Shown piece after piece: positions 9,709-49,675 of a stretch of DNA of 64,000 nucleotides; within the stretch, counting starts at the first letter, position 1, and each line of letters starts with the position of its first letter. The position numbers were made by a program, and so were the translations under genes. The notes below the pieces were generated by a model. It was not told the origin of the DNA and did not search any database. It was given only the letters and a program-made list of their open reading frames with translations. This DNA comes from a virus. Its lineage: Duplodnaviria; Caudoviricetes. The stretch covers positions 1 to 64,000 of IMG/VR virus record IMGVR_UViG_3300014204_000129, one strand, 5' to 3'.

Positions 9709-10422
9709 CTACTTCCTCGCTATAGCATATATGTCTGGCCCAGATACATATATAGTAGACATATTAAATATTAGTAACCAGTCTCCTAGTTCATCATACG
9801 ATATGTTCTTATACCACTCTGTATATTCTCCTATCAGCCACTTGCCATCTACAGCGGAGTGTGGAAGCCAGTTATTAGCGGCCATAACAAGTAGCACACC
9901 CCCATCTTTCAATATACTATATGCATTATGTAGGATAGATCTACTATCCGGTGTATGCTCTAATGTTCCTACACACACTACCATATCTGCTAACCTTGGC
10001 GGTGCATACTTACTTGCATCGCAGACCACATCAACTCCTGGGCCAGCTTCGATGTCAACTCCAACAAACTCACAGTTGAATATATCCCTTATTCCACCAT
10101 TGATATCCTTACTACCAAACTCCACCACTAAACCCTCTTTAGACAGAGGGTGTGCAGTAACAAAGGTTTCTACCCAATCATGGACAAGTTTTGTCATAAG
10201 TATGTTACCCAGAATGCTATAGCCATAAATATCATCAGCCCTACCCAACATATCATTAACAATGTATTTTCTATTTTCTCTACTCCTGTGCTGATGGCGA
10301 GCACACACATAGCTATATACCATATCTTTGCCAGAATATCCATGTAACCTCCACTGAATTTTATCATCACTAAGCATCTCCCCTGAGTGCCCCATTATAG
10401 CACAGGTCGGCAGCCTTGGCAA
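9709..10422 (-). CDS. class I SAM-dependent methyltransferase
   Basis: VEFGSxDING, VGVD, GPGVDVVCD, LEH, LKDGG; the true start may be downstream of the track start. Confidence 0.8.
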   Translation of the reverse strand: MPRLPTCAIMGHSGEMLSDDKIQWRLHGYSGKDMVYSYVCARHQHRSRENRKYIVNDMLGRADDIYGYSILGNILMTKLVHDWVETFVTAHPLSKEGLVVEFGSKDINGGIRDIFNCEFVGVDIEAGPGVDVVCDASKYAPPRLADMVVCVGTLEHTPDSRSILHNAYSILKDGGVLLVMAANNWLPHSAVDGKWLIGEYTEWYKNISYDELGDWLLIFNMSTIYVSGPDIYAIARK

Positions 10423-10450
10423 GCAGCAACTTCTTTCGTGCTATAGATAT

Positions 10451-10972
10451 TTAGTGGTGCCGGCCATCTCGGCCACTCGACCGGGTAGCATACCGTGAGA
10501 CTGCATACCCACTTCTACACAGGTTCGCACACTCTCGACACCTATGTCCAGCTATAGTTACAGGAACGCCGCAATCGGGGCATACCTTTGCCTTGGGAAC
10601 TCGTTTCGGGGGCCGTACACGCAGCTTCTTTATGATTGTATAGACATCGGCTGGATATATGCCCAACTCCGCTGCAATAACTGGCACAGGGACATGCCTG
10701 TGGTTTAGTTGCTCATTGACATAGGCAACTACCATATCGCGGGTAACCTTAAAGCCTATAATAGTGTTTGATTGCCAGAGCACAGATTTGGTAATAGCCA
10801 GGGCTGCATTAGCCTGCTCTCGTGTGCACCCCACCCGCGCCTGATACTCAGCGGGGGTAGGAACACGGCCAAGCTCAGCAGACATCTGCTGAATAGTAGC
10901 CACAATAGTATGATCGGGATGGTAGGCTGCGCGCATGGCCAGGAGTATACCACAGCTGGCCGGGAAACGCAA
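10451..10972 (-). CDS. putative DNA-binding protein (HTH-like segments plus C-terminal CxxC..CxxC zinc finger)
   Basis: AELGRVPTPAEY, IAAELGIYPADV, CPDCG...CREC; GC-richer than its neighbours. Confidence 0.5.
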   Translation of the reverse strand: MRFPASCGILLAMRAAYHPDHTIVATIQQMSAELGRVPTPAEYQARVGCTREQANAALAITKSVLWQSNTIIGFKVTRDMVVAYVNEQLNHRHVPVPVIAAELGIYPADVYTIIKKLRVRPPKRVPKAKVCPDCGVPVTIAGHRCRECANLCRSGYAVSRYATRSSGRDGRHH

Positions 10973-11188
10973 CTATAGGTACGAACGTATATATTATGCA
11001 TTGCTAAGTATATTTATTTGAAAAGTTGGGTTGTGGTGGGTGAGGGGGTATCCCTACCTTACCCTGTCAACGCCGACGGTGAACCTTGTTTCTAGCGCTT
11101 ACTTCCCACACTCCGGTATATCATCGTATGCAGGACACTTGCCAATGGACATTGGTAGGTGTGCCCAGCCGAGTCTGCCCCGTCAAGG

Positions 11189-11311
11189 TTGACATAACAA
11201 GCCCAGCCACGGCGCAGACGTGTGCCATGCCCGGCTTGGATAGCTTGACATAACAAGGTCAGCCCGGGCACTGGGCAGCACCTGTACCCGGGCTGGTTGA
11301 CTTGACATAAC
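11189..11311 (+). repeat. three direct TTGACATAAC repeats (11189, 11245, 11302), plus an inverted copy at 12170-12179
   Basis: Exact 10-mer at 56- and 57-bp intervals; GTTATGTCAA downstream of the GC-rich ORF. Confidence 0.85.
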
Positions 11312-11396
11312 GTACAGCCAGGTCGTGCAGGCCCTCGTGTGCTGTGCAGGCCATCGTTGCACTCCTGATGTGCACGTGTGAGACGTGTGCCCGGAT

Positions 11397-11426
11397 TTGA
11401 CAAGCCACAACGACCGGGTGTAGACT
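11397..11426 (+). promoter_or_regulatory. sigma70-type promoter for the GC-rich ORF
   Basis: TTGACA-18 bp-TAGACT. Confidence 0.6.
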
Positions 11427-11478
11427 GGGGAGGTGGTGAGTCGCCGACTACCTACGCGCTGTCTGTGGAGAAAGTGCT

Positions 11479-12105
11479 ATGTCACGTTCTACCGTCCGTC
11501 CGACTGACTCTGGTACCCTTGCCGCCGTCGCGACCACTGAAGGTGAGATGCTTGCCGCCGTCGCAGCCAATCGTCGGGAACATGCAGCCGCTACTGCCAC
11601 CACCATGCCCGCCACTGAGTCAGACCTGCCCGCAGCCATCGCTGCCGCCGTCGAGGCGCTGCGTGCCGCTGGCCAAGGTGTGCTGGCCGACGCCGCCGTC
11701 ACTCAGTACCGTGAGTCGGTCAAGCCCGCAGCCGTTGTGCCCGCCATCGACGTGGCTCCACTCGCTGGCCCTGAAGTGCTTGCGCACGACGGGGAGTGGA
11801 ATATCGTCGTCGCGTCCGGCAACGGCACGCCCGCCCGTGTGTTCTCCGCCGAACACACACTCACAAAGTTGGATGGCTTGATTTCGGACCTAGCTGCCGT
11901 CACTGCGTCCCGTCGCTTTACGTTCCGTGTCGTGGGCGGCAAGGTCGAGGGCGCGAGTGTCGAGACTGCCAAGCCCGGTGCGGGGAAGCGCACCGGCGAG
12001 ACACCATACATCATCACTGAGACCCGCCTAGCGCGTGCCGAGCGGGCTGCCGAGAAAGCTGCGGCCCGCCTCGCTGCCCTACGTGCCACCACGCCAACCG
12101 CCTAG
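11479..12105 (+). CDS. Ala-rich hypothetical protein with GC-rich codons, monocistronic
   Basis: GGAG SD, own promoter and downstream terminator; third codon positions are mostly G/C. Confidence 0.75.
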   Translation: MSRSTVRPTDSGTLAAVATTEGEMLAAVAANRREHAAATATTMPATESDLPAAIAAAVEALRAAGQGVLADAAVTQYRESVKPAAVVPAIDVAPLAGPEVLAHDGEWNIVVASGNGTPARVFSAEHTLTKLDGLISDLAAVTASRRFTFRVVGGKVEGASVETAKPGAGKRTGETPYIITETRLARAERAAEKAAARLAALRATTPTA

Positions 12106-12126
12106 CGCGTCCCACCGTCTGACCAC

Positions 12127-12155
12127 TGGGGAGCCACCCGGCTCCCCATTCCTTT
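12127..12155 (+). terminator. intrinsic terminator
   Basis: TGGGGAGCC-accc-GGCTCCCCA followed by TTCCTTT. Confidence 0.65.
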
Positions 12156-12336
12156 GCCTAGCCTCGACAGTTATGTCAAGTACCCCTCCCCAGAACGTGT
12201 ACCCACAATCGTCATGAGAAGCCACCAGCACGGTTCCCCGTGCCCTATGGACGGTAGGACACGGTCGGTAGGTAGCAGTGCCTTGCCAGTGTCCTTAGAG
12301 ACGATTCCAGTGGGTCAGAACGTGCGCCCGCAGATG

Positions 12337-13433: not shown

Positions 13434-14413
13434 TTAGATAGGGATGGTATTTAGTGTTAGAAACCATTTCACAAATAAAACACTCACTTTCATATATTTA
13501 CTAAGGCTAAACTCTTACAACTTTCAGCATTACATATTATTGGTGTTATCCCCCGCCGAGTATCATCCCTGTCAGAATATTGTCAAAGATATACTTGACC
13601 TTATCCCGCCTACTGGCTGCCTTGCAGGACGCTAGCATCGGCTCCGCTGCTTTGCAGGACCGTGGCGCCGATTTGCGCGCTGGCGCCCGCTGTGGTAGGG
13701 TAGGGCACGGGTCGGACCATTGCGGGCGCGCCGTCGCATCTTTCGCAACATTCTATGGGGAGTGTAACTTTGAAGATAACCAGAGCTCACAATACCTTGC
13801 TCATTCTGCAAGCATCAGATCTTGACAGCGTACCAAATGTCAAGGTTATTAGTGAGGGACCAAAGGCCCCGGAAATTACACACACACTATTCCTTGCCCA
13901 TAGTGGCAGGATGTACAATCTGAAGCTAGATTTGTGGGAAGATATCCGCATGGCTTGTGGGCGGATATCTTGCTTCTCACATACCCCGCAGTCTATGCTA
14001 CTTATCCCAGAAGGTTTGACTAACCTACCAAAGAACTATGAACAATATACGCTGAGGTTCGCTGGCAAGGTTATTGCTTACCTTTACTGGCCACACACAT
14101 TGGGTGCAGTTAAGAGATTTGGTTACAAAGACGTTGTGATAGACAATCCTACCTTTGGTGACCGAACAAACGTGGTTGTGGAAAGTGTGCCGGAGTACTG
14201 GAAGGAAGTTATGATGGCACAGGTTACTGGCATCACAGAAGCTATGGCAAGGCAATTGTTGGGCATAGCTGAGTGGAAAGAGAATATAGTAAGTGAGTTT
14301 CAGAATATAGACTAATAAGAATCAGTATAATAATAGTTCATGTATCAGGGTAGCAATACTCTGAGGATGAATGTCGTGCTAAGTTGGGGCAGAGTAACAT
14401 CTGCCCCAGTTTC

Positions 14414-14459
14414 TATTGTGGATTAACCAGAGTAAAGATACTGTGGTTAGCACACAATA
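14414..14459 (+). promoter_or_regulatory. SD-proximal stem-loop H1
   Basis: TATTGTG..TTAACCA-G-AGTA-aaga-TACT-G-TGGTTAG..CACAATA, then AGGAG; ATG at 14471. Confidence 0.7.
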
Positions 14460-15552
14460 AGGAGAGAATCATGAAGGGTCATGTGTGGCTACATAGGAAG
14501 TTTCAGAACTCTCCAGGAGTGTGGATGGTAAAGTTGCCAGGAGACATTGCCCGACCTGTTGGGAAGGAAGATGAGCAGGGGGTAAGTGAAGAGATCTTAA
14601 TTGCACGAGCAGAAGTTTCTCGTGCACGTGAGGAGTATGTGAATCTCATCTGTGACATGCTCAGAGAGAAGTATGACAACGCTGTCATAACTGTACACGA
14701 CAAGTATGTGACAGCAGAAGTGCGTGGAAAGGTTGTGGCTAAGAAGGCTCTGAGGGTATAACGTCATGCAGACAGCCAAGTGTGGGTGCGTTGTGGATGT
14801 AAGTAAGAACTGGATAGAAAAGCACTGCAAAGTGCTAGAGGATGCTTTAAGGTTATCTAGCACAGGCAAGAACTTTAACCCTGATCCTGACTCGTTCATG
14901 AAGAATTACCAGATTGCTCAGGAGCACATTATTGCAGTGAAAAAAGAGGTAGGATTACTGCAATGAAGTGTGCAAGGCATTAATAAGGAGAGGTAGTAAT
15001 GAAGAAGTGGATGATTGTGCTAGCACTAACTGGCATATTCGTTCTCCGGGACATGCCAAACAAGTTGGAGAGTGTCTGGATGAAGACGTTTGTGACTAAG
15101 TATGGAGAAGTGATACCAGGACATGCAGACTGGTATCAGTTTGACTATTAGTTAGTGATTGACAAAGCTCATTAGTATATAATATATACTGTGAGCTTTG
15201 ATGAGACTAAGAGGAGTGTGCTGTGGAACTAAAGTGGGCAGAGATGGGCTGGTGGTATGGCAGCAACGAATTCGATAAGAAGTTGCTGGGGGAGGCTGGT
15301 AACTCAAGTTATCGGGTGGAAGATCAGTGCCAGGCAATGAGGACGTCTGACTTCGTGCTCATAACGTCAGAGCACAAGATGACCATAATCTCCGCAGACA
15401 CTATCGTGCGGGGATTTGGTGAGGATAAGGATGGCAAGAGTTTGAGAGAGCTAATGAAGGAGGAAGTTATCTATAACTACGCTCTTCGCTGTTAATGCAA
15501 TAATGGTTAATGAGGGAGCTATACTTTGGCTCCCTCATTAAGATTAGGGCAC

Positions 15553-15596
15553 TTTTGCTATTTACCAGAGTCATAAGATTGTGGTAAGCAGCAAAG
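15553..15596 (+). promoter_or_regulatory. SD-proximal stem-loop H2
   Basis: TTTTGCT..TTACCA-G-AGTC-ataa-GATT-G-TGGTAA..AGCAAAG. Confidence 0.7.
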
Positions 15597-15608
15597 GGGT
15601 GACTAACT

Positions 15609-16028
15609 GTGAACAAAGAGTATCTAAACTGGTCACTAGAAGCCTGTGATTGGTTATATAAGCAGTATAATATAACCAATTATAGGTCAACGGTACTTGA
15701 CAAGAATGTCAAGACTTGTTGGTATGAGTACAACAGTGGCCTGCACCAGATAACTATTGGTCAGCATTACACAGCTAAGTTGTCAACAGATGGATATAGA
15801 GAGTACGATGAAGTTGAATGGGTATGGGATAATGTAGATAGTGGCTTCGATGATCGTGATAATTGGCAGTTTATGCAAGTGTGGAAAGTGGTGTTGCACG
15901 AGTTCGCTCACGTGTTGTGGTCAGATATTTATTGGGATAGTGGTGAGGACGTACATGGCAGTAAGTATCAATCTCTGCTTAGAGAGTTGATAGAGACTTA
16001 CCCTTGGCATGTATTTCTCCGACCATAA
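15609..16028 (+). CDS. SprT-like HExxH metallopeptidase
   Basis: VLHEFAH with a downstream HG. Confidence 0.55.
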   Translation: MNKEYLNWSLEACDWLYKQYNITNYRSTVLDKNVKTCWYEYNSGLHQITIGQHYTAKLSTDGYREYDEVEWVWDNVDSGFDDRDNWQFMQVWKVVLHEFAHVLWSDIYWDSGEDVHGSKYQSLLRELIETYPWHVFLRP

Positions 16029-17203
16029 TGCATGTTATGGTCTAGGGCACTAATAAGGAGAGAAACTGTGGGTACGTGTCCGATTTGTGGAAAGATTCAT
16101 CGGGAGTATCCTGAGGAGTGCTTGCGGGCCGCAGAACTTGCCTGTAAGAAGTTGTGCAAGGGTGTGACTCATCATGATGACTGCATGTTGGAGGACATGC
16201 AGGAATACGTTAGTTGTGGTAGGTCTGTTGAAGAGTATTTAGATCCAGAAGATGCCTTCGAGGAAACTCCCGATGAAGTATATGCGCGACAATACTGGGA
16301 GGACATGGATAGAGAGTTCTACGAAGAGCTAGATAACGCCGACGAACCTCTCGACTGGGTTGATGACTTTGATCGTCGTTCGATAGAAGATCTTGATGGG
16401 CCTATATTCGATGGTCAGGAGTACTAATATGGAAGATCCCGCGGACAGAGTTGATATCAAGGAAGAGTTGGAGAAGTTATCCGAAGAAGAACTAGTGCAG
16501 GAGTATACATTCCTGCTATCTTTGGAGGAATAACATGCGGGATTATATCATGCTCAGTAGTGCACCTGTGGAAGAGGATTGTGCACAGGTTGGTAACGCC
16601 AACTATAGTGAGCAAGCACAGAGAGAGTGTAGAGAACTAATAAGGATGATGGAGGAGATTCATCCTGAGCAGCCTAAGATGTTCTTTGGCTACTACAAGA
16701 TCAAAGGTTTCCCCCATGACTTCGGTACATATTATGAGGTCGTGGCTATGTATGATGATGAGAATGAGGAAAGTATAGACTGGGCGTTCGATGCAGAGAG
16801 TCTTATCCCAGAACATTGGGATGAGCTTGCAAAGAAGAATCTACGTGGATAAGTGGGCAGCGTGGAAGAGGCAAGTGAAACACTATCTCATAAGATACTG
16901 GAGGTATAATAAGGGGATAAACAGTCAAAGGCTTCTAGCCCTATATAACTACGGTTATACAAGCAAGGAAGCTGCGCGTAAAATAGCCCACCAGGAGGTA
17001 TACTGTGCCTAATGTCAAGCGCTTGCAGAACCGTGAGGGAGTTAGACGATACGAAGTTAGTAACTGTAAGAGTCGTGAGCGCGCAGTCAGGGCCGTTGCA
17101 CAGATGTATCGTTATGATAAACATTGTTGGGCGTACTACACCGTGGAAGTTGATAGTGGGTTCAGAGTAGACGTAGTGAAGAATAAGAACCCACTACCAG
17201 ACA

Positions 17204-17270
17204 CTTTGTTGTAGGTTTACACGCAGGGCCTAAACATCGGTTTAGACCCTGGTGTTAGTCTATAACAAAG
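17204..17270 (+). promoter_or_regulatory. SD-proximal stem-loop H3
   Basis: CTTTGTTGTAGG...CAGGGCCTAAAC-atcg-GTTTAGACCCTG...TCTATAACAAAG, then GAGAG. Confidence 0.75.
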
Positions 17271-18076
17271 GAGAGACACGATGTACGAAGTAGTGAGCGG
17301 CCACGAAGCAGGACATCTGTACCACGACTACGTCTTCAGGTGCAAGAATGAGGAGGAAGCAAGAGAGTGCATAAAGGCCCTTGATGAGTATGCTAATAGG
17401 CAACAAACTCAGAACTGGGTTTGGGGTCCACAAATGTGGAAGAAGGCAGACACTTGTGTACCTATTCATTGGAATGGGTACCAAGAAGTAGATGCTCCCT
17501 GGTGGAGTGGTACCCTGAATATTGTGTCTTGCGAGAAGTGTGTCTACCACGGATGTGCAGGGAGATTGTATGCCCCGATAACCGACGGCAACAGAATGTG
17601 TGCTACTTTCAAGAGTGTCAGTATCAAGGAGAGCAAGGTGAGCACGAAGTTGGATGACGCAATAAAGGCGCGTGTAGAGATGTGTGCTGAGTGTCACAAG
17701 CTCATTAGTTGTGACCTCATACAGGACTCAGCGAAACTGTGGGCAAAGATGATGTACTCACAGTTTGAGAATGAGATGACCGAGCATTCACTATACCTGC
17801 ACGTATATGGTGCAATCTTGCAGCGCCGTGATACTGTGCAGGTCGTGTATGCTGCGCACTATGACTCAGTAGATGTTGTGGATGTGATTGTCAAGAGAGA
17901 TCATAGTGTCCCGTTTGAGGAGGATAGAGAAGCAGCAAGGAAGAAGGCTATGGATCGTATGAAGGGACAGCTTGTGCAGGATAGTTCTCAGGGCTGTCAC
18001 AAGTCTGTTGTTATAGCTGCCTGGATAAGGTGCTATAATGAGATGGATGATGTTTGGGAGGGCAGTGTTCTCACCC

Positions 18077-18137
18077 GTTAAGTCGTGAGCTAGGCCCCAC
18101 CAGCAGGAATGTTGGTGGGGTTTGCTCAGGGCATAAC
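18077..18137 (+). promoter_or_regulatory. SD-proximal stem-loop H4
   Basis: TGAGC-t-AGGCCCCACCAGCA-ggaa-TGTTGGTGGGGTTT-GCTCA. Confidence 0.75.
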
Positions 18138-18964
18138 AAAAAGGAGAGAAATCGTGCTGGCGAAGTGTGGATGTATGATAAGGGAGAGAGAAGTTGCTGC
18201 CCAGAACTAGAAAGATTGGAGAGAAAGTGTAGGGAGATAGCAAGGAAGCAGGGTAGATCATATCCTACCATCGGTAAGTACTTGGCGAGAATAGAGATAC
18301 ATAAGAATCTTGCACAGGGAGAGGGACAATGACACTCTATCGTGCAGAGTTCTACACTCGGAACGATGAGAAGGTTGGTGAGGCACAATTCTTGGCCAGC
18401 AACCAGAGCCAGGTAAGTGCCCAAGTGCAGGCTAGCATTAATGACCTACACGATCTTGGCATCACTGATCTGTTCTGCGTGGAAATCAGCATCATCTAAG
18501 GAGAAACGTGGTGTTCAAGCCAGTTTGGCAGACATCTGGTGAGACATATATTGCTAGTAAGGAGGAACTAGCGGGTATGTCAGAGAGAGATAAGCTTGAG
18601 TATGAACTGTTCTTTGCTCCGGCCAGACCGGCAACACTGAGGCAGGAACTTCACCTGTATGCACAACAGGAAACTGGTGTGCAAGAACCAAAGGTAAGTA
18701 TCTTGCCCGCACAGCGCCGACCTAACAGGTTGACAATGTAAGGTGAAGATAAGATGATTGGCAGAGTTGTTGGGCTGTGTGATGTGCGTGGCTATGATAG
18801 CTACGTTGGGGTTGTCATAAAGGAACTAACTGATTATCCTGGATTCTTCATTGTTGAGTACACCAACAGTGAGGAACAAACTGTGCCCTTGGTGGTATCA
18901 AGGGATGATGTAGTAAGATATCAGGAGGAAGGCTTTCCAATACAATTCTACCCCATAGAGTGAC

Positions 18965-19015
18965 CTAACACACAGCCAGCAAGGTACAATGAGGTATCTT
19001 GTTGGCTGTAGTTAG
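18965..19015 (+). promoter_or_regulatory. SD-proximal stem-loop H5
   Basis: CTAAC..ACAGCCAGCAAGGTAC-aatgag-GTATCTTGTTGGCTGT.GTTAG. Confidence 0.75.
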
Positions 19016-20495
19016 AGCATTAAGGAGGGGTATATGGAAGTAGAGGTCTGGACAAGATCTGGGGAAGTATCGGTGTTCCATAACGTAGATAAGCTGTACT
19101 ATGCTAACTTTGACTATCCATCAGAAAGTGTACTAGTGCTGCACTCTAATATACATGATAAGGAGGCTCGATACCCAGCAAGAAGGATCTCTGGTATAAC
19201 TGCCACTGTGGAAGATCGGGTGGCTTCCTTCTTCACGTTTGGTGGGGTCGATCACGTTGTGAGGTAAGCAACCATGCACTACTTTATCGTGCGCTATCGC
19301 AACGGAAATCTAGCAGAGATACATGAAGATTATGGGCTTAAGGAGGATATTTACAACAAGTACCTATATGATCCTTGTGTGCCTTCTAGGACATACTCGG
19401 TATTTGGCCCATACAGATCTGCGGAACTAAGAGATATCGCAGAACAGGAGTATCGTGATGAAACCTTGGCGGGTAACTTGTGAGAACTGCCCAGAGCTAG
19501 GAGAATGTGACGGCATATCAAAGCCTGTTTCTTATCTCAGTGAGGAGGATGCAAAGAAAGATAAGCAGTGTCCGATGCAGGAAGTGCGGCAGGATAACTG
19601 GCCATGCTTGAAGTGCTAATAGTAATAGGATGGATAGTTCTGTCAAGCACTTTGGGTATACTAGTAGATAAACTACGAGGTAGATAATGACCATCATTTT
19701 GGACTATGAAACCATCACTGAAGTCATGGAAGTGGTGGCACATGCCGCAGTCATCATACTAGCAATCTCCTGGATAATCGCAAGTCTAACACCGGAGAAG
19801 TAAGATGTGCTGGACAGTAAGTTGTGAGGGATGTCCTAGTGTGCCCTCAAACTATCCTGGATGTCCAAATGCCACTGTGCCCTCTCGTGACTTCGTCAGT
19901 TATTTGACGAGAGAGGATGCGGAGAAGGCTAAGGTCTGCACATTGCAGGAGGTATATGAAGAGAAAGAGAGTTGTGAGGAGCTGTACATTAGGGAGCTAA
20001 TGAGGAGACTGTAACGTGGCAGAACTAGACTACGTGTACCTTAATGGACTAAATGTTCCTTGCTACCGAGTGTTTGGTATCAAGATGAGAGTCTTTGTTA
20101 GTCCAAAGACAGTTGCACGGGAACTGTTCTTAAGGATTAGGCGCAATACACAGCCTGATACTCCAGAAACAGTTCAAGTTAAGTTAACATCTCTACCGTC
20201 CAGTTTCACAGTGATGTACTACGGACCGAAGACCGAAGAGGAGATTCTAAAGCTAGCATCTGACCTTGAAAAGGAGCTTAATAATGGGGTACAAGAGATC
20301 AATGCAAGCTGTCCATTCGGCGGAGAGTGTTGCTGCAAATAATCCTGAGGATACCGTTGTGGTGTTCAAGGGAGAGGACAATAAGTACCATATTAGGCGC
20401 TTTAATGAGGAGCGCGGAGTAGATACGTTCGTGGAGAAGAGAAGGGGTAATATTCACAGTATCATTAGGCCAGAGGCATAAGTAGAACCTACAAG

Positions 20496-20556
20496 TTAGT
20501 TATACCTTTCGTCAGTAGTCAGGGAAACTTGACTACTGATATAAGGGCGTAACTAA
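20496..20556 (+). promoter_or_regulatory. SD-proximal stem-loop H6
   Basis: TTAGTTATACCT..GTCAGTAGTCAGG-gaaa-CTTGACTACTGAT..AGGGCGTAACTAA. Confidence 0.75.
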
Positions 20557-21791
20557 GGAGAAAGATTGTGGACAAGCATGTGGAGAAGCTTTACATGGAC
20601 AGCTACAAGAAGAGTATCGACAATACCATGGCGGGCATTAATAAGGAGAGTGAGAAGAGTCTCCTTCTTAAAGAAGTAGCAGCGTCATTCCTTTTCTGTA
20701 TTCGTAAGTTACTTAGGGAGGAAGAAACAGATCCCTGGACTAAGGGAAAGATTTCCGGTGTGCTCTCCTGTCGTGAGTTTCTCCCCAATGATGTAAATGC
20801 TGTATTGTGGGAGATGCAGAAGATCTATGATGAGGTTCTTCTGCGAGGCATGGATATAAGGAGTAGCAGACATGCTACTTAGTGTAGAGGTCTTTAGCAT
20901 GATACTCTGGACGGCAGTAGCTCTCACCATTATCGGGAAGGTAGCTAAGGATAAGATAGTGGTGAGTATTGGAAGAATATTGTGGGGAGTTGCCATTGGT
21001 GCGCTGCTCAGTATACTGCGGTTATCTCTCTAGGAGAAGTACACATGAATGTTAGGGTACGATGGATGTGGGGTGGTTGGGAAACCCTGCATAACATTGC
21101 AGAGGTACACCATAACTATGATAATGGCACGGGTATGCCTACACATCGAGTAGCATTTGTTACCAAGGAACATACTAGCTTTACCTATCGGTGTGAAGAG
21201 ATACGTGAGATGGAGATAACTGAAGAGAGTGAAGTACTCTGTGGATACTGCGGGCACACACTGTCTAGAGAAGTGCAGACTAATGGTGCTCCGATGATGT
21301 ATTGCTGGAAGTGTGGAAACTGGCAAGCATGTTGACACTCATTGTTCTCACATTGATGCTCATTATGATCCTTATAAAGCTAGTAAGTACACTACTGGGG
21401 GGATAACATGAAGAAGTTGCTGACAGTTTTGAGAGAAGCGGTTGTCTCTCATAACTTTCACAAGGCTGTGGAACGGGACTTCCCTAATCATACCACGAGA
21501 CTACCAACTGCTAAGGAGTTGGCAGAGATCTATCAGTACTCACCAGAAGAACAGGTAGAAGGTATGACTCCATATGATCTGCGAGATGTCATACTATTCG
21601 TTCTTACCCTTGTAGATAATAGTGGTAAGCTTAGCTTGGACACACCCGATTGTGAGCATGCAATGAGATCGGTGGGTTTGTAAGAGGATGTATAATAGTG
21701 CGCTGATCTTGTTTTTGTGCTTATATCCTATTGCGCTTGTGGTGGGCCTCGCAATAGGATATCTAATAGTGGAGAATCTAATTGTGAGACG

Positions 21792-21846
21792 TTTGTAGGC
21801 TGAGCGTCTGCCCATAAGCAATTGTGGGCAGACATGAGCCTATAAA
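21792..21846 (+). promoter_or_regulatory. SD-proximal stem-loop H7
   Basis: TTTGTAGGCT..GTCTGCCCATAA-gcaa-TTGTGGGCAGAC..AGCCTATAAA. Confidence 0.75.
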
Positions 21847-23565
21847 TTAAGGAGGGAGTTGTGATGGATGTAAAGAAGGTGCAGGAGTTGGCTGAGGCTT
21901 GTACTATGGTCATTAATAGTTGTTCGGAACACAGCGAAGACGATCAGCTGCTAGAAGTAAACTGGAATGTTGTGTATGAGATGAAAGGGAAGCTAGAGGA
22001 GGTTCTTGTAGAACTTGCGTTGATAACTGGGAAGGCACAGGAGTACCCAAAATGGCTAATATAATACATGTGGTAGATCTATTGGCAAAGCACAGTAAGG
22101 GTGAACTAGATAGCCCTGACTATCTTTACAATGAGTTGATGAGAGTCGGAGAACAGTTCAGTGGTAATAAACTCTGTAATGAGCTAAGAAGTGCATTGTG
22201 TATAACTATCGTCTGGGACTCAGTAGAGAATGAAGGCAGACTTAGGAATCTTTCTATACTAGCAGCAATGTCTGACAATAGTATTCCTGTAGAAGAGATC
22301 ATTACCTTCTACAAGAATATCGTTGATCTAGCCGCTGCACTATCTAACCAAGCTTCTACACCTATAGTAGAAGAATGTTGTAGGTGTCTGCGACATGAGA
22401 TTGGGAGTGCAACAATATATGGGCACTTCATGCAGGCTACAGAGTACTTCAGTAAAGCCAGTGCATATCCTGGACTGATAACTCTATGCAGAGATATCCT
22501 TGGTAGAACACTGGCTGCCAGTCTCGTGGGCAGTGGAGAAGATGAATATAATGATATTCTACTAATAAAGAGAGTTTTAACAGAACTTCATCAAGAGAAC
22601 TTGATTGTTCTTCTGCTTGAATATTATAGTAATCTTACGTGGAATGTTGCAATGGATACCCTTAGTGATACCGTTAAGTAAGTACCTCACACATCTTTCC
22701 AACATTCATTCGCAAAGGCCACCTTAGGGACATTTGCGGGCCAATTACTAAGGCACTTTTTATGGATGCTCTTAGTGTTTAGGGCAAAATCTGATAGGAG
22801 AACGATGGTGGAAAAGTATGAAAGAGAGGAGTTACTAAGGTTACTGGCTGAGGATGGTAGTCTGCCTGCATGTACAAACCTTGGTGGGTATCCTATAGTT
22901 TATTTTGATAAGTATGGTGAAACATACTGTCCTGAGTGTGCAAGTAGTAACCTCAATGCAGAGGTCTCTGGTGAAGATTCTTACTCGCAGATAGTTATGG
23001 GTACTATCTATTGGGAAGGCCCACCACTTATTTGTAGTGAATGCTTTACAGAAATAGAATCTGCCTATGGAGATCCTGATGACCAAAGCTGAGAAGAACC
23101 TAGAAGAGCTGGGATTTGACAAAGCATACACGACTTTATATGAGAAGAATAGAGAGAGGTTGGTTGAGCAGTATACCGCAGAGATTGATGCGTGGGGTTG
23201 GGAGGGTATCTATAATGAGGCAATGAATAATGCTGATGAGAGAAATGTAGGTAGTTGTTATCTCGGTACGGTGTTCTCACTGACTCCTAGTGGGAAGTAT
23301 TATACCTCTTGGGCCAGCTCGAATATAGAAGTGCTAGAGGCGGTTAAGGATGATATTTGGCAGGAAGTGCTAGAAGGTTTTGCAGTAACTTGGGGAGGAT
23401 ATATAACTTCTGGGGAGGGTGACCCATGCGATATATTCTTTGAGACGTATGTAGAGAAGGAAAAGTATGATGAACGACCCTTCAATGTACTAGTGTGGAG
23501 CTTGGTTACAGTAGCTTGTGTTCTTGGTATAATTATTATCACAATCTTGATGAGATAGGAGAAAG

Positions 23566-23766
23566 GTGATGAAGAATGTGAAGGTTGAGGCTAAGGGTAA
23601 CAATATTGTGCTGACCATTGATACTACTAAGAATTTTGGGCGGAGTAAGAGTTCAGGTGCTAATATCATTGTTGCTAGTAGTGGTGGGAATCAGGCAGTG
23701 ATGGTAGGAGATAGGGAGTTTAAGCTTGGTGTGAATATGTTTAGGGAGCCTGAGCCCGGAGAGTAG
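23566..23766 (+). CDS. small conserved beta-strand protein
   Basis: MKNVxxExxGNxxxLTID..GxSxS..IIVASSGGN pattern, recognised from memory as a recurrent small hypothetical family. Confidence 0.55.
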   Translation: MMKNVKVEAKGNNIVLTIDTTKNFGRSKSSGANIIVASSGGNQAVMVGDREFKLGVNMFREPEPGE

Positions 23767-23822
23767 TTAGTAGTTAATGGAGAGGGTAGGAACCTTCCTA
23801 CCCTCTGATTAGTGACTAACTA
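23764..23822 (+). promoter_or_regulatory. SD-proximal stem-loop H8
   Basis: TAGTTAGT..TAAT..AGAGGGTAGGA-acct-TCCTACCCTCT.ATTA..ACTAACTA. Confidence 0.75.
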
Positions 23823-26800
23823 TAATTCACTAAAGGGGGAATATAATGCTATTCGCAGACTTTGTAGATGGGGTAGCCGGCAAGAAGGTGTGGAAGGACA
23901 TTCGAGAGTGGACTATTGGGTGCATGGGTGTTCAGGGAACACTTAGGGGGGATATTGTACACCTGTTTGTAGAGAGTGATCCTGTGGAGGTTAGATATCT
24001 GCTAGGGCGTGTAGAAGCAGGTATAGCGATGCTGATGCAGTATAACAAGTCCCGTTATCATGAAGTTAGGTTGTTTGTGCTTGATAGGCTTCCTGGCGCC
24101 CTAAATGATCTTGTAGAGGAGTTTGCAAAGATATGAGATATCATAGTTATATGGCAGAGTTCTACCTTAGATCCTCACGTCTATGTATCAAGCTTTCTAA
24201 GCTTCTTAATAGACTTGCACATTGGCTACTTAGTCGTACAGACCCACATATTCATGCAATAGAAAGGATGGGGCATGATAACTAACATTCCTAAACCACC
24301 GGATGGATCTGCTTTCGAGTTAGTTGAAATAAAGGAGGGTGGTGTGCCACACTATTACTGTATCACACCACTACACCTTGAGTACTGCGAGAGTGGTACA
24401 TTGGATGCTAATAGTATCAGGGATGCAGAACGTCGTGGTGCAAAGTGTGATATATGTAGAAGTAGGGGTTTGAACTATACTTTTGATGAGCATACTGTTG
24501 AGAATGCACTTGTTATTGCTGTAGAACAGGTTGAAGACCTAAATGCTATAGTGGGGCTAGCTGCATACTTGAGTAGTATTAAAGAGATGGCAGAGAGTCT
24601 TGGTATAACAGGATTTGCTTTCCAGAGGAGAGAAGAATGATAAAGGTTTTTGTCCTGTGCATAGTAACAGGTGTGTGTACTTTGGCGCTTGCAATAGTTG
24701 GTGGTAGCCACGCACTTTTCTTCTTGGCCGGAGCAACTCTTGAAGCAGCACTTGTTATGTGGGTCATGCGACATGATACCTAAATATTACTGTGGATGGC
24801 ATAACAACAGGTGGGAAGCATTTTCAGCAGAAAATGAACCTACTGCTGAGACTCATGGTGATAAGTACCTCTATGTTATAGGTCCATTTCGTACTAAGCG
24901 CGCTGCGCTGTTTACAGAAAAAGAAGGGCATGGCCCAAATATGCAAACTGTTGATGAATTAGAGAGAGCAGCAAAAGATGCTGAGATTCATCCACATCGT
25001 ATAGTTATTGGTAATAGATACTTCACAGGGCACCATGTGGGACTCGATTCACGTAAGTTTGGTGTGGCAGTACCACTTGCTGAGGTTGGTACACATAATT
25101 GTGGTGGTAATTTGATACCTAATGTTCGGGGTGCATACTACCCCCTGAAGAAGAGTGAAGTAGTTCTTAGGTTAGATGATGGTGAGTATATTATCCTGCC
25201 TAAAGGTGATCTTATCAACGAGAGCGCTGTATTGCTAGGATATTACCCAAGGGAGGTTATGGGATGAATACTGGATTTATATCATGGGGACGTGATATGG
25301 TAAGTGTGGTGTGCCATTGCAGTCTAGTACCTGAGTACCCACACTTTTCAGACTTTGTTGATATGGATGCCTTTTGTAAGGATATCAACATAGTCCTAGC
25401 TACTATTGCCACTGTCTCTTGGGAGGACTACACGCTCAATATACAATATCCAAGAGTGGAAGATTGGAATAAGATAAAGGAAGAGATTGATAGAGTAGAA
25501 AAGATGTATGTTACTGCTATAGAAACTGCACGGATGTTGAAGAAGGTAAGAGTGTGATAGGATTGTTTGTGACAGTAATGTGTGGAGCAGCTTACATACT
25601 ATCAGGAAGCAGTGTATTTCTAATACTTGCAGCCACTGGGGTGGTAGTTGTTATATATGAATATATGAGAAGGGATATAAAGGAGCAGTAGTGTGCAGAC
25701 TATAGAAGAAGTACATAGTCTGAATAATGGTGTATATGCAGGAGATCATGCTGATTGGCTGGTAGTATATATTACATATCGTGATGCAGATGTGCTTATA
25801 GATAGTAACTTCGATGCCATAGAGAAGTTTCTTAGAGAAAAGTGCCCTGATGACGTAGAGATTGAGAGAAGCCGAGATTCACTCTTTGGCTGGAGAGATC
25901 ATCTCATTGTTAGACCCAATAGTGATGCTGTAGAATGGGCTGAAGATTGTCACAGGCAACTTGAGAACTATGCTATCTTCGATGAGACTGCTTATGCAGA
26001 AGAGGAGGCAGATAGACATAGGTATCATTGGCACTATTGGGATAGCTGGTCAGAGAATGATGAATGTAGTTTGTGTAGTATATTTGCAGAGAGATTAGCG
26101 GAGTTTAAGCGAAATAAGAAGGCAGTATGGGCCAGAGACTATCTAAGGAGAGTGTTTAAGATGAGGTGTATAGATGGATGATCTTATTGATGTCTTTGGG
26201 TACCTTTGTGAATATAGTGATAATGGGTGGCCTATAGTGTATATAACCGATACTGGTGATTATATTTGTAGTATCTGCGCTGACAACTACAATATTACAA
26301 GGATAGTTGAAGCAGTAACCTGTAATTCCTTTATCTGTGATTTCTGCGGGACACTTGTGATATAAGATGGTAGCTTATATGGTTATTATAAATATCACTG
26401 AGAAATATATGACAATACAGGGGGCTGGTAGAGATAAAGAAGATGCTATATCTGATGCCATAGATCAATTCCTAGAAGATAACAAGTACTTTGATGAGGA
26501 TGATATTAGTGTGGCAGATTGTATAGAACTGGAAGAAGGGGAATAATAGTATGCGATATATGATTACTGCTCATATCTATGTAGACAAGGTCGTACAAGT
26601 AACAGTAGGGGCTGATACTGCCACACAAGCAGACTGGGCTGCCAGATTCCATCTAAAGAGGGCCCCACTACTTCCTTCTGATAAAGATATAACTGTACTA
26701 CATGAGTTTCCCATTGATGAAAGTATAGATAAAGCAGTAGATGTACATTATTGGGATTGTAGAGAGAAGGAAAGTAGAGAAGAAAAGGAAGAGGCTGCTT

Positions 26801-26827
26801 GGAAGGAATGGAAAGCTAAGCACCATC

Positions 26828-26881
26828 TTTGAGTATTGATCACAGGGCAGGCGTAATCCTGCCCTGAAGTTAGTACTCAAA
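26828..26881 (+). promoter_or_regulatory. SD-proximal stem-loop H9
   Basis: TTTGAGTATTGAT..CAGGGCAGG-cgtaat-CCTGCCCTG..GTTAGTACTCAAA, then TAAGGAGG. Confidence 0.75.
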
Positions 26882-27844
26882 TAAGGAGGAAGGAAGTGGC
26901 TGTAGTCATTGAGGATATGTATGTATTCGACACAGAATTATTTTATAGAATAGTACTTGAGGAGGGAGAGAAGAGAGTAAAAGTCTGCACAGTAGTTAGA
27001 AATCCATTGTTCGCTGCCATATATATGGAGCCAACATTCCATGTCAATTCTTGGGTATGGAGCCCCACCTTTAAGGGAGCTAGTTACTTTTATAATGGGT
27101 TTATGGCCTATATACAAATGTATACTGATGGTAGATTCAAGGTCATACCGGAGAATACTGAGGTTATTATAAGGTCTTATGAGATTGATGACGGTGAATA
27201 CTTACATCATACTGCACATAGTAATATGATAGGAGGGTGTCAATGACAAGTTCCCTATCGAGAACATTTGACAGAGATGAGGGGGTTAAGGCTGTAGAAG
27301 AGATAGAGAAGGAGTTGTTCACAGATAATGTATATCTAATAACTAACTACGCTCTTAGTCAGAGGGATGAGGTTACTGTTTACTGGGAGACTCTTTACCC
27401 CAACAGATCTAATCTACCCCGTGTTACAGAGAGTGGTCTTGAGATAGCCTTTGTGGCAAGTGAAGCTGTGCGAGTAGAGGCAGTAGTAGCATATCGTAAT
27501 AAGAAGTTTAGTATCTCTGGGTTCCTACATCTAGTAGATGGTATATTTACTTGTAGTAAAGAAGGACTATATATGTACCACTATGCTGGATATTGTTGTG
27601 AGACTCCTACTAAGGCAGGAGGAAAGCATATTACAGAGTATGTTATAGAGACTATAAATCATCTATATAATGCACATAAGGATACCTGGGATAGTTATCT
27701 TAAGAAGGCCGGCGTCATTCGTGCCCACGAGAGAATCTATAGTAGTATGGGGGATAGGGAGGAACATCTTAAGAAGATACAAGAACTCGATGAAGAGATT
27801 GCTAGACAGGCAGCCACTATCATAGAGCTAATAGGAGCAAAGTA

Positions 27845-29188
27845 GTGTCTATAATTGAAACTGGGATTAGCCCCAAGTATGTTAAAGATTGGGGAGTAGT
27901 GTTTGCTCTGCGAGAGCTTGTACAGAACTGGGCGGATGTAAGAGATGAGTTTAATTGCAAAGGTACTATTCGTTGGGCAAATGGTTATGCACATTTCCGT
28001 GATTATGGGCCGGGCCTGGAGATGCGCCACCTTGTAATGGGTATCAGTGAGAAGGGCGAAGATACTATTGGTACCTTTGGTGAGGGGTTGAAGCTAGCCG
28101 CACTTGTGCTAGCAAGAGAGGGTCGTAAGATAGTAATAAGAACTAAAGATATTGTACTCTCTCCTACTATAGTTCATAGCAGCACGTTTGGTATTGATGT
28201 GTTGGCCTATTATAAGGAGATAAACTCTCCTGCCACAGTTGGTACAGATATTCTGGTAGAATGTAGTGAGGAGGAGCTTGATGAAGCAAAGTCATTCTTT
28301 GCTCGTTTTACTCCCCTACACTGGCTTGTAAAGGATAAGCTAAGTACACCTGGTGGACGGTTGTATGTAAATGGTGCTATAGTAGCTGAACTACCTGACG
28401 CACTATTTAGCTATCATGTGAAGCGTAGTGAGTCGGGCATTATTTGTAATCGTGATAGAACTGTAGTTAGTATGACAGCGGCAGAAACTGTAGTATCTGA
28501 CTACATACTAGAAGAGATGGCTCCAAAAGAGATCAGAAGTCTATTGGATACTGTTGCACATGATACTGTTTCAGTATTTGAGTCCAAATGTGAGTTCTAC
28601 AACCGCTATACTATTAGCTTTGAAAGACACATTATTATTAAAGAGGCTTTTGAAGCTATCTTTGGTACTCGTACACTGATTGGTACCGGCAATGATGATG
28701 AGATAATTGCTAAGTATCTTGGATATGATATAGAGTATTTTAGATATGGTTGGGCTCGACTACTTGCTTCGGTAGGAATACAAAGTAGCAATGATGTAAT
28801 TAATGATCTTAGGTATACACAAATAGAGGATCTTACTGAAGAGAATAAGTCCCTAGTTGAGCGCGCTAAGAACAAGGTACAGAATCTCTTCCATGAGGAA
28901 CTTCCTCGGATTATTATAGTAGATAAGATTATCAATGGTGGATCTCGCAATATAAAAGCAATGTATGATGGTGGTGATAATACAGTTGTGCTTGCTAGAC
29001 AGATACTAGAAGATCCTGAAAGCATACTGCCATGCATTCTACATGAGGCGGCTCACTGGGCAAGTAACAGTGTAGATCTCACAAGCGAATTTGAGAACAT
29101 GCTTACTAGAATGTGCGGTGTTCTTATGCAGATTGTGTATGGAGGGACTGTTACTAAAATCCATGCTAAGAGTAGAGATAACCAATAG
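27845..29188 (+). CDS. GHKL (HATPase-like) ATPase fused to a C-terminal HExxH metallopeptidase-like domain
   Basis: ALRELVQNWAD, DYGPG, IGTFGEGLK; LHEAAH near the C-terminus. Confidence 0.75.
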   Translation: MSIIETGISPKYVKDWGVVFALRELVQNWADVRDEFNCKGTIRWANGYAHFRDYGPGLEMRHLVMGISEKGEDTIGTFGEGLKLAALVLAREGRKIVIRTKDIVLSPTIVHSSTFGIDVLAYYKEINSPATVGTDILVECSEEELDEAKSFFARFTPLHWLVKDKLSTPGGRLYVNGAIVAELPDALFSYHVKRSESGIICNRDRTVVSMTAAETVVSDYILEEMAPKEIRSLLDTVAHDTVSVFESKCEFYNRYTISFERHIIIKEAFEAIFGTRTLIGTGNDDEIIAKYLGYDIEYFRYGWARLLASVGIQSSNDVINDLRYTQIEDLTEENKSLVERAKNKVQNLFHEELPRIIIVDKIINGGSRNIKAMYDGGDNTVVLARQILEDPESILPCILHEAAHWASNSVDLTSEFENMLTRMCGVLMQIVYGGTVTKIHAKSRDNQ

Positions 29189-41958: not shown

Positions 41959-42645
41959 TTGGAACTTATTGTTGACATACACGAGCCTAAAGCTATAGAC
42001 CCATTGTTAGTTGCTAAACTGGGAGAGGGTGTGGTTAGACGCCCTCTCCCAACTGGTGATTATACATTCATGGGCAAAGAGGGCTGTGTAGTCATTGAAC
42101 GTAAGGCCGTGAATGATCTCTATGGCTCATTCATGAAAGGAAGATTACAGGATCAATTACGAAGATGCCTATCCATGTCATCCCAAGCTTTCCTTCTTAT
42201 AGAAGGGTCACTAAAGGAATCTCATGGGTTTCTTGTTGCAGGTAATGGCAAGAGGATGAAGACGCCTTACACAGCACTATCTAATTTTCTAGTTAGTGCC
42301 CAGGCTGAGGGGATTAATATACTACTCAGCACTTCACTTGAAAACACTGCCAGTGTAATAGCTGGATTATATAATTACTTTCAGAAAGAAACACACAAGT
42401 CTATGGCAGATAGTGGAACTAGAAGCAAGGTGTGTAAGACACTACTAGATCAGCAGGTGTTGTTTCTTACCGGGCTACCTGGTATTGGGGAACAGCTGGC
42501 TAAGGATATATTAAGTGTGTACTTTAGTCCGGCACTGGCCATACAAGGTAACCTTGAGGGTGTAAAAGGTGTTGGGCCAAAGAAGAGGGAAGTGGCTATT
42601 AATGTTCTATATGGAATTGATAAAGGGGGTGTAAGTGACCAATAG
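41959..42645 (+). CDS. ERCC4/XPF-family nuclease with HhH motifs
   Basis: VDxxE, GDY, IERKxxxD, LLIEG, LPGIG, VKGVG. Confidence 0.9.
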   Translation: MELIVDIHEPKAIDPLLVAKLGEGVVRRPLPTGDYTFMGKEGCVVIERKAVNDLYGSFMKGRLQDQLRRCLSMSSQAFLLIEGSLKESHGFLVAGNGKRMKTPYTALSNFLVSAQAEGINILLSTSLENTASVIAGLYNYFQKETHKSMADSGTRSKVCKTLLDQQVLFLTGLPGIGEQLAKDILSVYFSPALAIQGNLEGVKGVGPKKREVAINVLYGIDKGGVSDQ

Positions 42646-47602: not shown

Positions 47603-49641
47603 GTGTAATAAACAATTACGGTATGCTGATGATGATCTAATTATAGGTGAATTTCTAGAGTGGTACTTTAATAACTCTATTAGACCAGGGAGTGTTATTT
47701 GTAACTGTTGTGGGGCAGGGCTAGAAGTAGAGAGTATTAACAATATACTGGCAAGATACCATCACATAGACCTAACCAGGCTCTCCCTAGAAAAGAAAGC
47801 TATACTGGAGTCTTTACGTAGTGTATGAGCAGCCTAGCTCTGAGTGTAGAGTATGTAATGGTGCTGGCACTGTGGGCCGCTGGAGAAATAATGGCAAGTT
47901 TGTGCAACGGCGGTGCCCACACTGTAAAGGCTGTGGAAGATTATATTCATCTATGGCGCCTAGCACAGAGCCCGTGATATCTAGTAATGAGGAGGAACAT
48001 GTACACCACCAATCGACTCAATAATATACCATGTGGTTCTATATTTAGAGTACCTGATGGTAACACTCTGATGGTTAAGCAGGGATATGTTACTGCCACT
48101 AACTCCTGGTACTGTAAAGGTGTTGATGGTAAAGGAGACTATTTCTTCTCAGTAGAGAGTAATTATATGGTAGTTGTGCTAGATGTTAAGAAGGCTGTGG
48201 AGTTTGTAGAAGAGACTTGTGCAGCCTTTACATCTTCCATAGACCCCCTTGCGCTTTGGTATCGTATAGATAGCCTTGTAAAGGAGCTAAACTATGATAG
48301 ATTCCACACTGTTTAGGGTGATCGCTCGAACATCAGAGCTTGTATATATAGATTTAATTGGGATGGATAGGGTCGTAAGGTATCCACAGCCACTATATGA
48401 TTCTCTCATCAAGGATAAGCTCTATATAGGTAGATTTGATAGTGATACGCAGTTTATTACCGATATCAAAAGTGCCCCTGAGCCAGACCCCAATGATGGG
48501 ATGACTATGATGTATCCAAGTACTAATATCGAAGTAGGGAACACCTGGGAGTGCTCATTACTATATAATATTCTAAAGAGTCTACACAATAGATGTGGGT
48601 TTACAGAGTGGTGGATGGACATTGACCCTGTAATCCAAGAAGAGATCATTAATGATCTTATATATATTATACGTTAATATAATATTATTATTAGTAATCA
48701 TTATTATTAGAGGGGTGCTTAGTTTATGTATAAAGTGACATTGCACACAGGGGTGATTACCCCACAGAAGTTAGGAAAGTATACCTGGTTATCATTTAGT
48801 ACTGAGGCCCCATTTATTGGTCAGGGCATGGTTATTGGACCAGATGATGCGGAAATTACCATAGAGGAGTGGGGGTACAGAGACGGAGAATTATGGGGTA
48901 ACGGTAGGAACGAAAGCTCTAAGCTTTGCTCTACATTAGAAGAATATAATAATGAGATACAATACTTTGTAGATCGTGGTTGGAAGATAGATTACGAATT
49001 TAATATAAGGTAGAGATTTTATATACTATAATGGTTGAATAAAGGTTGAATCAACTATAATAGTTGGGGGGATAAATGTATTTAGTAACTAAGGTTGACA
49101 GATGCTTCTATTGCTCGGCTGTGCACCACGTATTTTGTAGTTATAGACTTTCCTGTACGCATCCTAAGCATCCACTGTATTCAGCTATTGATAGGAGCAC
49201 CCCTGGCCTTGTAGAGTCTGACCTACAGAGAGATTGTCCACTGGTGAATATAGGGGAGGCCATTGCTAAGGCTTTTAATCAGCCTAAGATTATGGCTGAG
49301 GCATATAATGATATTATAAGGGGGTTGGCTATCAATGAACATTGAACTTGTTTCTTATAGTAACGTAGCATCCTTCAAGCTGCACCAAGCAGGATTAATC
49401 TTTTGTCTAGCACGTATAAATAGTTTTTGTAATGAGTGTGAACTAACAGCCCAGGATATGGGCTACCCACATGTACACTTTAAGCTTATAGAATCTGTTG
49501 ATGATCAGACATATCTTGTAGAAAGTACTCAGCCAACAGAGATATCAGTTAGGATAGTAATGAGTATTATTGAAGAGACGGTTAAGAGACTTGAGTATGC
49601 TAGAGATATGAAGCGAAAGCTTGGGCTGTTTAGATGTTAAG

Positions 49642-49675
49642 AAGGGGTAGGGGGGAGTAATCCCCCCTATCTTAT
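49642..49675. terminator. hairpin between convergent transcription blocks
   Basis: GTAGGGGGGA-gtaa-TCCCCCCTAT at the strand switch. Confidence 0.7.

Follow-up and report, generated by a model that had tools for sequence, protein, structure and literature searches.

Long bulged hairpins before ribosome-binding sites in the putative early gene block of a tailed phage: candidate RNase III-type processing signals

Introduction

The cutting of early phage mRNA at intercistronic stem-loops by host RNase III is a known principle, with precedents in T7, T3 and SP82. In bacterial operons, REP-type stem-loops serve as intercistronic stabilisers. Here we describe nine long hairpins, each placed directly before a Shine-Dalgarno sequence (SD), in a tailed phage (Duplodnaviria; Caudoviricetes) known from the IMG/VR record IMGVR_UViG_3300014204_000129. 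The contig comprises 111,443 bp, is classed as linear and is ~75% complete. The window analysed here is its first 64 kb (64,000 nucleotides, nt), to which all coordinates refer unless the genome is named.

The early mRNA of SP82, a phage of B. subtilis, is cut by the host RNase III (Panganiban and Whiteley 1983, as cited in PMC4838370). For bacterial RNase III, two helical turns of ~22 bp are the primary reactivity epitope, and internal loops can confine the cut to one strand, which leaves protective 3' hairpins (PMC1540722). The cleft of the enzyme accommodates ~22 bp, and the in vivo cuts of E. coli RNase III are most enriched in intergenic-within-transcript regions and in 5' untranslated regions (PMC6212723). 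Stem-loops of another kind are the PeSL cassettes of T4-type phages, which recur as conserved elements of ~100 bp, each organised around a consensus sigma-70 promoter (PMC2839356, PMC4122927).

What is distinctive in the present phage is that nine or ten hairpins are crowded into 13 kb, that their stems are large and stable, and that all but two of the hairpins are unrelated in sequence.

The nine hairpins

Nine stems had been proposed in a first-pass annotation of this DNA, and all of them are present, with starts that are exact or within a few nt of those given there. They are numbered hp1 to hp9 along the plus strand (Table 1). Four more hairpins had been overlooked, namely a weaker element at 15144-15217 and three short perfect hairpins before hp1, hp2 and hp7. 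Each of hp1 to hp9 was trimmed to its best single hairpin and compared with 200 dinucleotide shuffles. The hairpins span 46-71 nt and have folding energies (dG) of -21.3 to -40.9 kcal/mol; their z-scores, which the trimming flatters somewhat, range from -5.8 to -9.1, and none of the shuffles folds equally well. With 19-29 bp (median 24) the stems have the length of the two-turn helices of ~20-22 bp or more that are described for RNase III substrates (PMC1540722, PMC6212723).

Read rung by rung, the helices are nearly continuous, broken here and there by small bulges or internal loops (1x1 to 3x3). The upper stems are GC-rich and the lower stems AU-rich, and there is no apical loop common to the nine. 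The internal loops are found 4-16 bp from the apical loop and are small and mostly symmetric (1x1, 2x2, 2x1).

Each hairpin contains 2-4 G-U pairs, which amount to 27 of the 219 bp overall. Every hairpin is more stable than its own reverse complement, by 2.5-16.5 kcal/mol, where the background strand bias of the block is 2.9 kcal/mol. The earlier statement that the G-U pairs favour the plus-strand RNA is thus borne out for all nine, indicating that these elements are plus-strand RNA structures and not DNA palindromes. Two further statements of the annotation, the lack of a U-tract and the position right before a purine-rich SD, agree with the sequence as well: the 10 nt 3' of each stem are purine-rich with at most two T, an AGGAG-type SD is found at the foot of the stem, and the stem ends 7-17 nt 5' of the start codon.

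The hairpins stand out against the rest of the genome. When the whole genome was folded in sliding windows of 70 nt, seven of the nine were among the dozen most stable plus-strand windows. Upstream of the 196 predicted gene starts the folding energy has a mean of -16.5 and a standard deviation of 6.3, and the seven lowest values (-34 to -41) all belong to this set. Genome-wide, no similar element was found outside 14-27 kb. Among gaps of at least 55 nt, such a hairpin occupies 9 of ~14 in 14-27 kb and 0 of ~12 in 27-50 kb (Fisher P = 0.0007; the gap counts are approximate).

Two strong hairpins elsewhere in the window were considered as members and rejected. The one at 42000-42074 lies in frame within an open reading frame (ORF) of 228 amino acids. 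The other, at 49638-49679, resembles a terminator, as it is GC-rich, has a T-rich tail and lies where the plus-strand block ends.

Placement between the genes

The five hairpins hp3, hp4, hp5, hp8 and hp9 hold the upstream stop codon within their 5' arm, and in hp8 this arm contains stop codons in all three frames. At these five junctions the distance from stop to start is 63-79 nt and is filled by the hairpin and the SD only, which is the intercistronic position described for RNase III sites. This leaves no space for a promoter and the flanking genes must therefore be co-transcribed; a promoter scan likewise detected no sigma-70 promoter inside the nine elements. The hairpins are thus predicted to lie within polycistronic RNA. 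Strong sigma-70-like promoters pointing into the block were detected at ~12.5 and 13.0 kb, and the block is probably expressed early.

The first-pass annotation had offered translational control as a second possibility. In the form of SD masking this did not hold up, since the SDs of the hairpin genes have an unpaired probability of 0.55, compared with 0.46 in 46 other plus-strand genes (P = 0.31). Accessibility is not lowered, which speaks against occlusion of the SD, and this model was rejected.

The hairpins are also unlikely to be terminators. An intrinsic terminator combines a GC-rich stem with a directly following U-tract, whereas the nine elements have AU-rich basal stems followed by at most two T. 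Separate short GC-rich hairpins with T-rich tails are found at the expected terminator places, at 14386-14417 and 49638-49679. The T-rich tail of the former doubles as the 5' arm of hp1.

Table 1. Hairpins in the gene block and the translation signals next to them (window positions; dG in kcal/mol)
Feature	Position	Strand	Stem	dG	z	Upstream stop	SD	Start codon	Remarks
hp1	14411..14463	+	21 bp, bulged	-21.3	-5.8		AAGGAGAG 14459-14466	ATG 14471	paralogue of hp2
hp2	15552..15597	+	19 bp	-21.6	-6.9		15594-15602	GTG 15609	core ACCAGAGU..UGUGGU common with hp1
hp3	17204..17270	+	29 bp	-33.5	-7.0	TAG 17212-17214, in 5' arm	17267-17275	ATG 17281	
hp4	18077..18137	+	26 bp	-40.9	-9.0	TAA 18079-18081, in 5' arm	18140-18149	GTG 18154	start of 18-codon ORF
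hp5	18960..19020	+	24 bp	-32.5	-6.8	TGA 18961-18963, at base	19021-19030	ATG 19034	
hp6	20497..20555	+	24 bp, GAAA loop	-31.1	-7.1		from 20554	GTG 20568	
hp7	21791..21847	+	24 bp, GCAA loop	-35.9	-9.1		21848-21858	GTG 21861	
hp8	23758..23828	+	28 bp	-33.7	-6.5	TAG 23764-23766, in 5' arm	23832-23841	ATG 23846	
hp9	26823..26886	+	24 bp	-32.9	-8.3	TGA 26830-26832, in 5' arm	from 26882	GTG 26896	
Tenth candidate	15144..15217	+	TTAGT/ACTAA lower stem, 17-bp upper stem	-22.6	-4.8		GAGGAG	GTG 15223	weaker
Short GC-rich hairpin	14386..14417	+	GGGGCAGA/TCTGCCCC						T-rich tail; directly 5' of hp1; terminator-like
Perfect hairpin	15509..15539	+	11 bp						directly 5' of hp2; no T-tract
Perfect hairpin	21723..21762	+	13 bp						28 nt 5' of hp7

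Sequence relations and covariation

The primary sequences had been described as different from one another. This is true of all pairs except hp1 and hp2, which are homologous (z 9.1 in local alignment); the other pairs align at chance level. Across the 19 rungs compared between hp1 and hp2 there are five double compensatory, two wobble-compatible and no disruptive changes, and a G/G mismatch is kept in both. These changes support selection for pairing and are the sole covariation evidence at hand. The core that the two hairpins have in common occurs twice in the genome, with no other occurrences, and the genes 3' of hp1 and hp2 are unrelated to each other. A short perfect GC-rich hairpin is found directly 5' of each of the two (regions 14386-14463 and 15509-15597). 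Rather than a generic stem, the conserved core and its G/G mismatch may constitute a specific operator.

The recurrence of GTTAG/CTAAC in the lower stems, also claimed in the annotation, is confirmed for one half of the motif only. GTTAG occurs five times in 539 nt, where 0.72 would be expected from a mostly coding background (P ~9e-4), but CTAAC occurs only twice.

No Rfam family matched the hairpins at gathering thresholds, and up to an E-value of 5 the matches were at chance level. The search for relatives of the phage was similarly negative: among 50,697 phage records neither megablast nor blastn found a match, protein-seeded scans of IMG/VR and the JGI metagenomes with two neighbouring genes gave no close relatives, and a set of 5.8 billion proteins likewise yielded none close enough for a covariation test. 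The nearest relatives have only one gene in common with this genome, at an identity of at most 38%. With a family profile 35 IMG/VR loci were fetched, and these share essentially only the gene of a 447-amino-acid protein with this genome; in the 31 of them that were scored, 0-3 gene upstream regions each are strongly structured. The core pattern of hp1 and hp2 has 33 matches across IMG/VR, which is close to a rough chance estimate; they are mostly in coding sequence and none of the 33 lies in a related phage.

Two of the distant IMG/VR phages have upstream elements of another kind. There, genes in the vicinity of the homologue of the 447-amino-acid protein are immediately preceded by a recurring motif, AGCCGAAAC(C/G), with a GC-rich hairpin behind it (L001:9241-9320, 9871-9965 and 11426-11495; L012:9306-9375). 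This motif is absent from the 64-kb window of the present phage.

The gene block and its genome

Encoded on the genome are a ribonucleotide reductase, a helicase, an ATPase and a collagen-like tail fibre, and the helicase is at most 29% identical to helicases of known phages. Judged by GC skew, a plus-strand gene block extends from ~13.4 to 50 kb, and the hairpins occupy its first 13 kb. This stretch contains ~45 small, tightly packed ORFs, which the hairpins split into modules of 1 to 7 translationally packed genes; other neighbouring genes of the block are coupled by ATGA-type overlaps. The 20 largest early proteins were searched against Pfam and none had a significant family, with one sub-threshold match to a zinc ribbon.

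On the contig, at its ~75% completeness, no RNase III, double-stranded RNA-binding domain (dsRBD), T7-like RNA polymerase or sigma factor was detected, so host enzymes would act on the block. As a control for the RNase III domain search, the domains were recovered in most bacterial control genomes.

The weaker tenth candidate contains the hexamers TTGACA and TATAAT. They are only 13 nt apart and therefore do not form a canonical promoter.

After hp4, in the region 18138-18332, a near-perfect SD (AAAGGAGAGA) and the GTG at 18154 lead into an ORF of only 18 codons with its end at 18210. Another frame contains an ORF of 53 codons (ATG 18171 to 18332), which lacks an SD and overlaps the ATG of the next gene by ATGA. 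Purines strongly predominate in the 118 nt between 18210 and 18329. A leader peptide or a miscalled gene could account for this arrangement.

GC skew on the coding strand between 14000 and 50000 is unusually strong (+0.2 to +0.3), making that strand G-rich and C-poor. Such a skew favours G-U pairing, and Rho would be expected to act poorly on mRNA of this kind.

The hairpin zone ends at a gene (27845-29188) for the protein of 447 amino acids mentioned above, which matches Pfam PF25856, while some of its homologues also match PF13589. It is the only gene of the region with many metagenomic homologues (72, with an identity of up to 38%), one of which comes from an Anaerolineae metagenome-assembled genome.

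Two segments, 10000-12300 and 13600-13750, have ~55% GC compared with ~42% elsewhere, and show many strongly folding windows on both strands. No tRNA genes were found in these two GC-rich segments.

The 228-amino-acid ORF with the rejected hairpin (41959-42645) begins with a TTG directly after the previous stop codon, and its in-frame hairpin, with 30 bp and a dG of -39, lies near the 5' end. From a GDY..ERK motif read by eye, its product looks like an ERCC4/XPF-type nuclease. The rejected terminator-like hairpin has a counterpart in the genome as well: a near-identical GC hairpin, G6-AGUAAU(AU)-C6, occurs twice, at 49650-49667 on the plus strand of the window and at 80966-80985 of the genome on the minus strand, both at gene ends. 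The pair may represent a shared terminator or regulatory site.

Discussion

We propose, with moderate confidence, that the hairpins are processing and stabilisation signals for a host enzyme of the RNase III type. A quasi-continuous double helix of about two turns would separate the stop codon of each module from the SD of the module that follows. Its likeliest reader would be the host RNase III, cutting in or near the internal loops, and the polycistronic RNA would in this way be divided into module-sized messages. A 3' hairpin retained on the upstream piece would keep 3'-5' exonucleases out, and the downstream piece would start a few nt 5' of a very strong SD, where a bound ribosome could shield the new 5' end. 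The first-pass annotation had drawn the same analogy, and its structural side stands, as the elements are RNA-level, plus-strand and intercistronic, have about two turns and no U-tract, and keep a T7-like distance to the SD. RNase III as the reader, stabilisation as the outcome, the early timing and the polycistronic transcript are all inferred.

Several observations weigh against this proposal. The internal loops are small and mostly symmetric, whereas those of the T7 sites are larger and asymmetric; for symmetric loops double-strand cuts are predicted, and these would leave no full 3' hairpin. Any stable hairpin could in principle block nucleases without being cut. Furthermore, long hairpins are missing from three gaps of comparable size within the block, and a covariation test across genomes is precluded by the nearest relatives sharing a single gene at no more than 38% identity.

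Next after RNase III processing we rank uncut barriers, a reading that is possible but rather unlikely. Here the hairpins would act as insulators or stabilisers that hold off 3'-5' exonucleases and 5'-end-dependent decay, by RNase E scanning or RNase J, so that each module has its own half-life. The high stability (dG down to -41), the position exactly at module boundaries and the free SD fit with this, no particular host enzyme is required, and REP-type intercistronic stem-loops work likewise. Exonuclease barriers are usually short GC-rich stems, however, and the steady length of about two turns and the AU-rich lower stems that extend the helices to 19-29 bp would be left unexplained. The remaining rivals take smaller shares. 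Improbable in our view is a translational device, in which the hairpin brings the upstream stop and the downstream SD together, or melts under a terminating ribosome, so that the first gene of a module is coupled to or gated by the previous module. The stops in the 5' arms of hp3, hp4, hp5, hp8 and hp9, and possibly of hp7, would suit such a device, and an extended fold pairs part of the SD in hp1 and hp4. It sits less well with the SD accessibility, which is no lower than that of the other plus-strand genes, with hp1, hp2 and hp6 lying 16-96 nt from the upstream stop, and with the simple coupling by ATGA-type overlaps that other neighbours in the block use. A related variant, to which we attach an equally low probability, combines the double-strand reader, be it host RNase III or a phage factor, with translation: as a sequence-independent punctuation, the hairpins would be acted on only at junctions whose upstream module has ceased to be translated. 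A terminating ribosome at the stop in the 5' arm would melt the lower stem, and the lifetime of each early message would be set by its own translation. In this variant a phage protein would use the core of hp1 and hp2, together with the preceding short hairpin, as a separate operator.

Recognition by one of the phage's own orphan early proteins, for example a novel double-stranded RNA nuclease, a binding protein or an antiterminator, seems distinctly improbable. None of the 20 early proteins tested has a significant Pfam family, and both the specific core with its G/G mismatch in hp1 and hp2 and the modest enrichment of GTTAG would be in line with it, but no motif is common to all nine hairpins and neither a dsRBD nor an RNase III domain was detected in the contig. 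Very improbable is transcription attenuation or termination at stems that lack a U-tract, with expression falling stepwise along the block. The stems are strong and stand at gene ends, and some phyla are reported to tolerate weak U-tracts. Against this, the tails are purine-rich SDs and the stem bases are AU-rich, the 7-17 nt before the next gene are too short for a restart from a promoter, and hairpins that do resemble terminators, with T-rich tails, exist separately in this phage. Least probable of all are DNA-level elements, that is, PeSL-type recombination or promoter cassettes, cruciforms or protein-binding sites. The location among orphan genes is that of the PeSLs of T4-type phages (PMC2839356) and the tenth candidate has the two promoter hexamers, yet the elements have no repeated consensus and no sigma-70 promoter, and their G-U pairs leave the other strand, and hence a cruciform, markedly weaker.

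If the stems are cut by RNase III, the phage would have reached the solution of T7 and SP82 independently, turning one long early transcript into separately stable messages, by means of nine or ten hairpins that each evolved on their own instead of one duplicated signal. This would support RNase III-type punctuation as a general trait of phage early operons. The hairpins would also offer strong and sequence-diverse natural substrates for studying recognition by bacterial RNase III. The practical gain is modest: the hairpins flag module boundaries and can aid the annotation of an otherwise opaque block of orphan genes.

Comparison with known systems

With the PeSLs the hairpins have in common that they are stem-loops in gaps between orphan early genes with an SD at the 3' end of the element. 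The stems of PeSLs are built from G/C tracts and act as terminators, whereas those described here are long and bulged. Membership in this class fails for lack of a promoter and of a shared sequence: in the nine elements no promoter was found, the only hexamer pair being that of the tenth candidate with its wrong spacing of 13 nt, and in place of a repeated sequence of ~100 bp only hp1 and hp2 are alike, with the other pairs at chance. REP-type stem-loops and the present hairpins are both intercistronic RNA hairpins able to set the stability of single segments. REP elements, in contrast, belong to a family of repeated sequences, and their position is independent of the next SD.

SP82 resembles the present phage in that host RNase III cuts early phage mRNA at stem-loops, as is proposed here, and in its strong SDs of the Gram-positive type, a likeness that rests on the secondary citation given above.

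The closest parallel is T7 with its sites R0.3, R0.5, R1, R1.1 and R1.3. In both phages the elements are intercistronic hairpins of about two turns with internal loops and no U-tract; the stems end 7-23 nt before the next start when both sets are taken together, with an SD at the foot, and they belong to an early operon of the host polymerase, which for the present phage is predicted from the sequence. Cleavage is established for T7, and the hairpins described here are candidate sites. The T7 sites form one homologous family with the core AAGGUC..GUGGCCUU, whereas eight of the nine hairpins here are unique. On reading the nine hairpins this consensus core of the T7 and T3 sites was absent, so they are analogues and not homologues. 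The term convergent, used in the first-pass annotation, is fair because neither the T7 sites nor any Rfam family resemble the hairpins in sequence. When the same script was applied to R0.3, R0.5 and R1, these gave 23, 21 and 17 bp with a dG of -19 to -23 kcal/mol, and their stems end 13, 16 and 23 nt before the start codon, compared with 7-17 nt here. Their internal loops (UC/UAU, -/UUA and UA/AAU) are asymmetric, while the loops here are small and mostly symmetric. The stems of the present phage are thus built on the plan of the T7 sites, but are longer and more stable (-21 to -41 kcal/mol).

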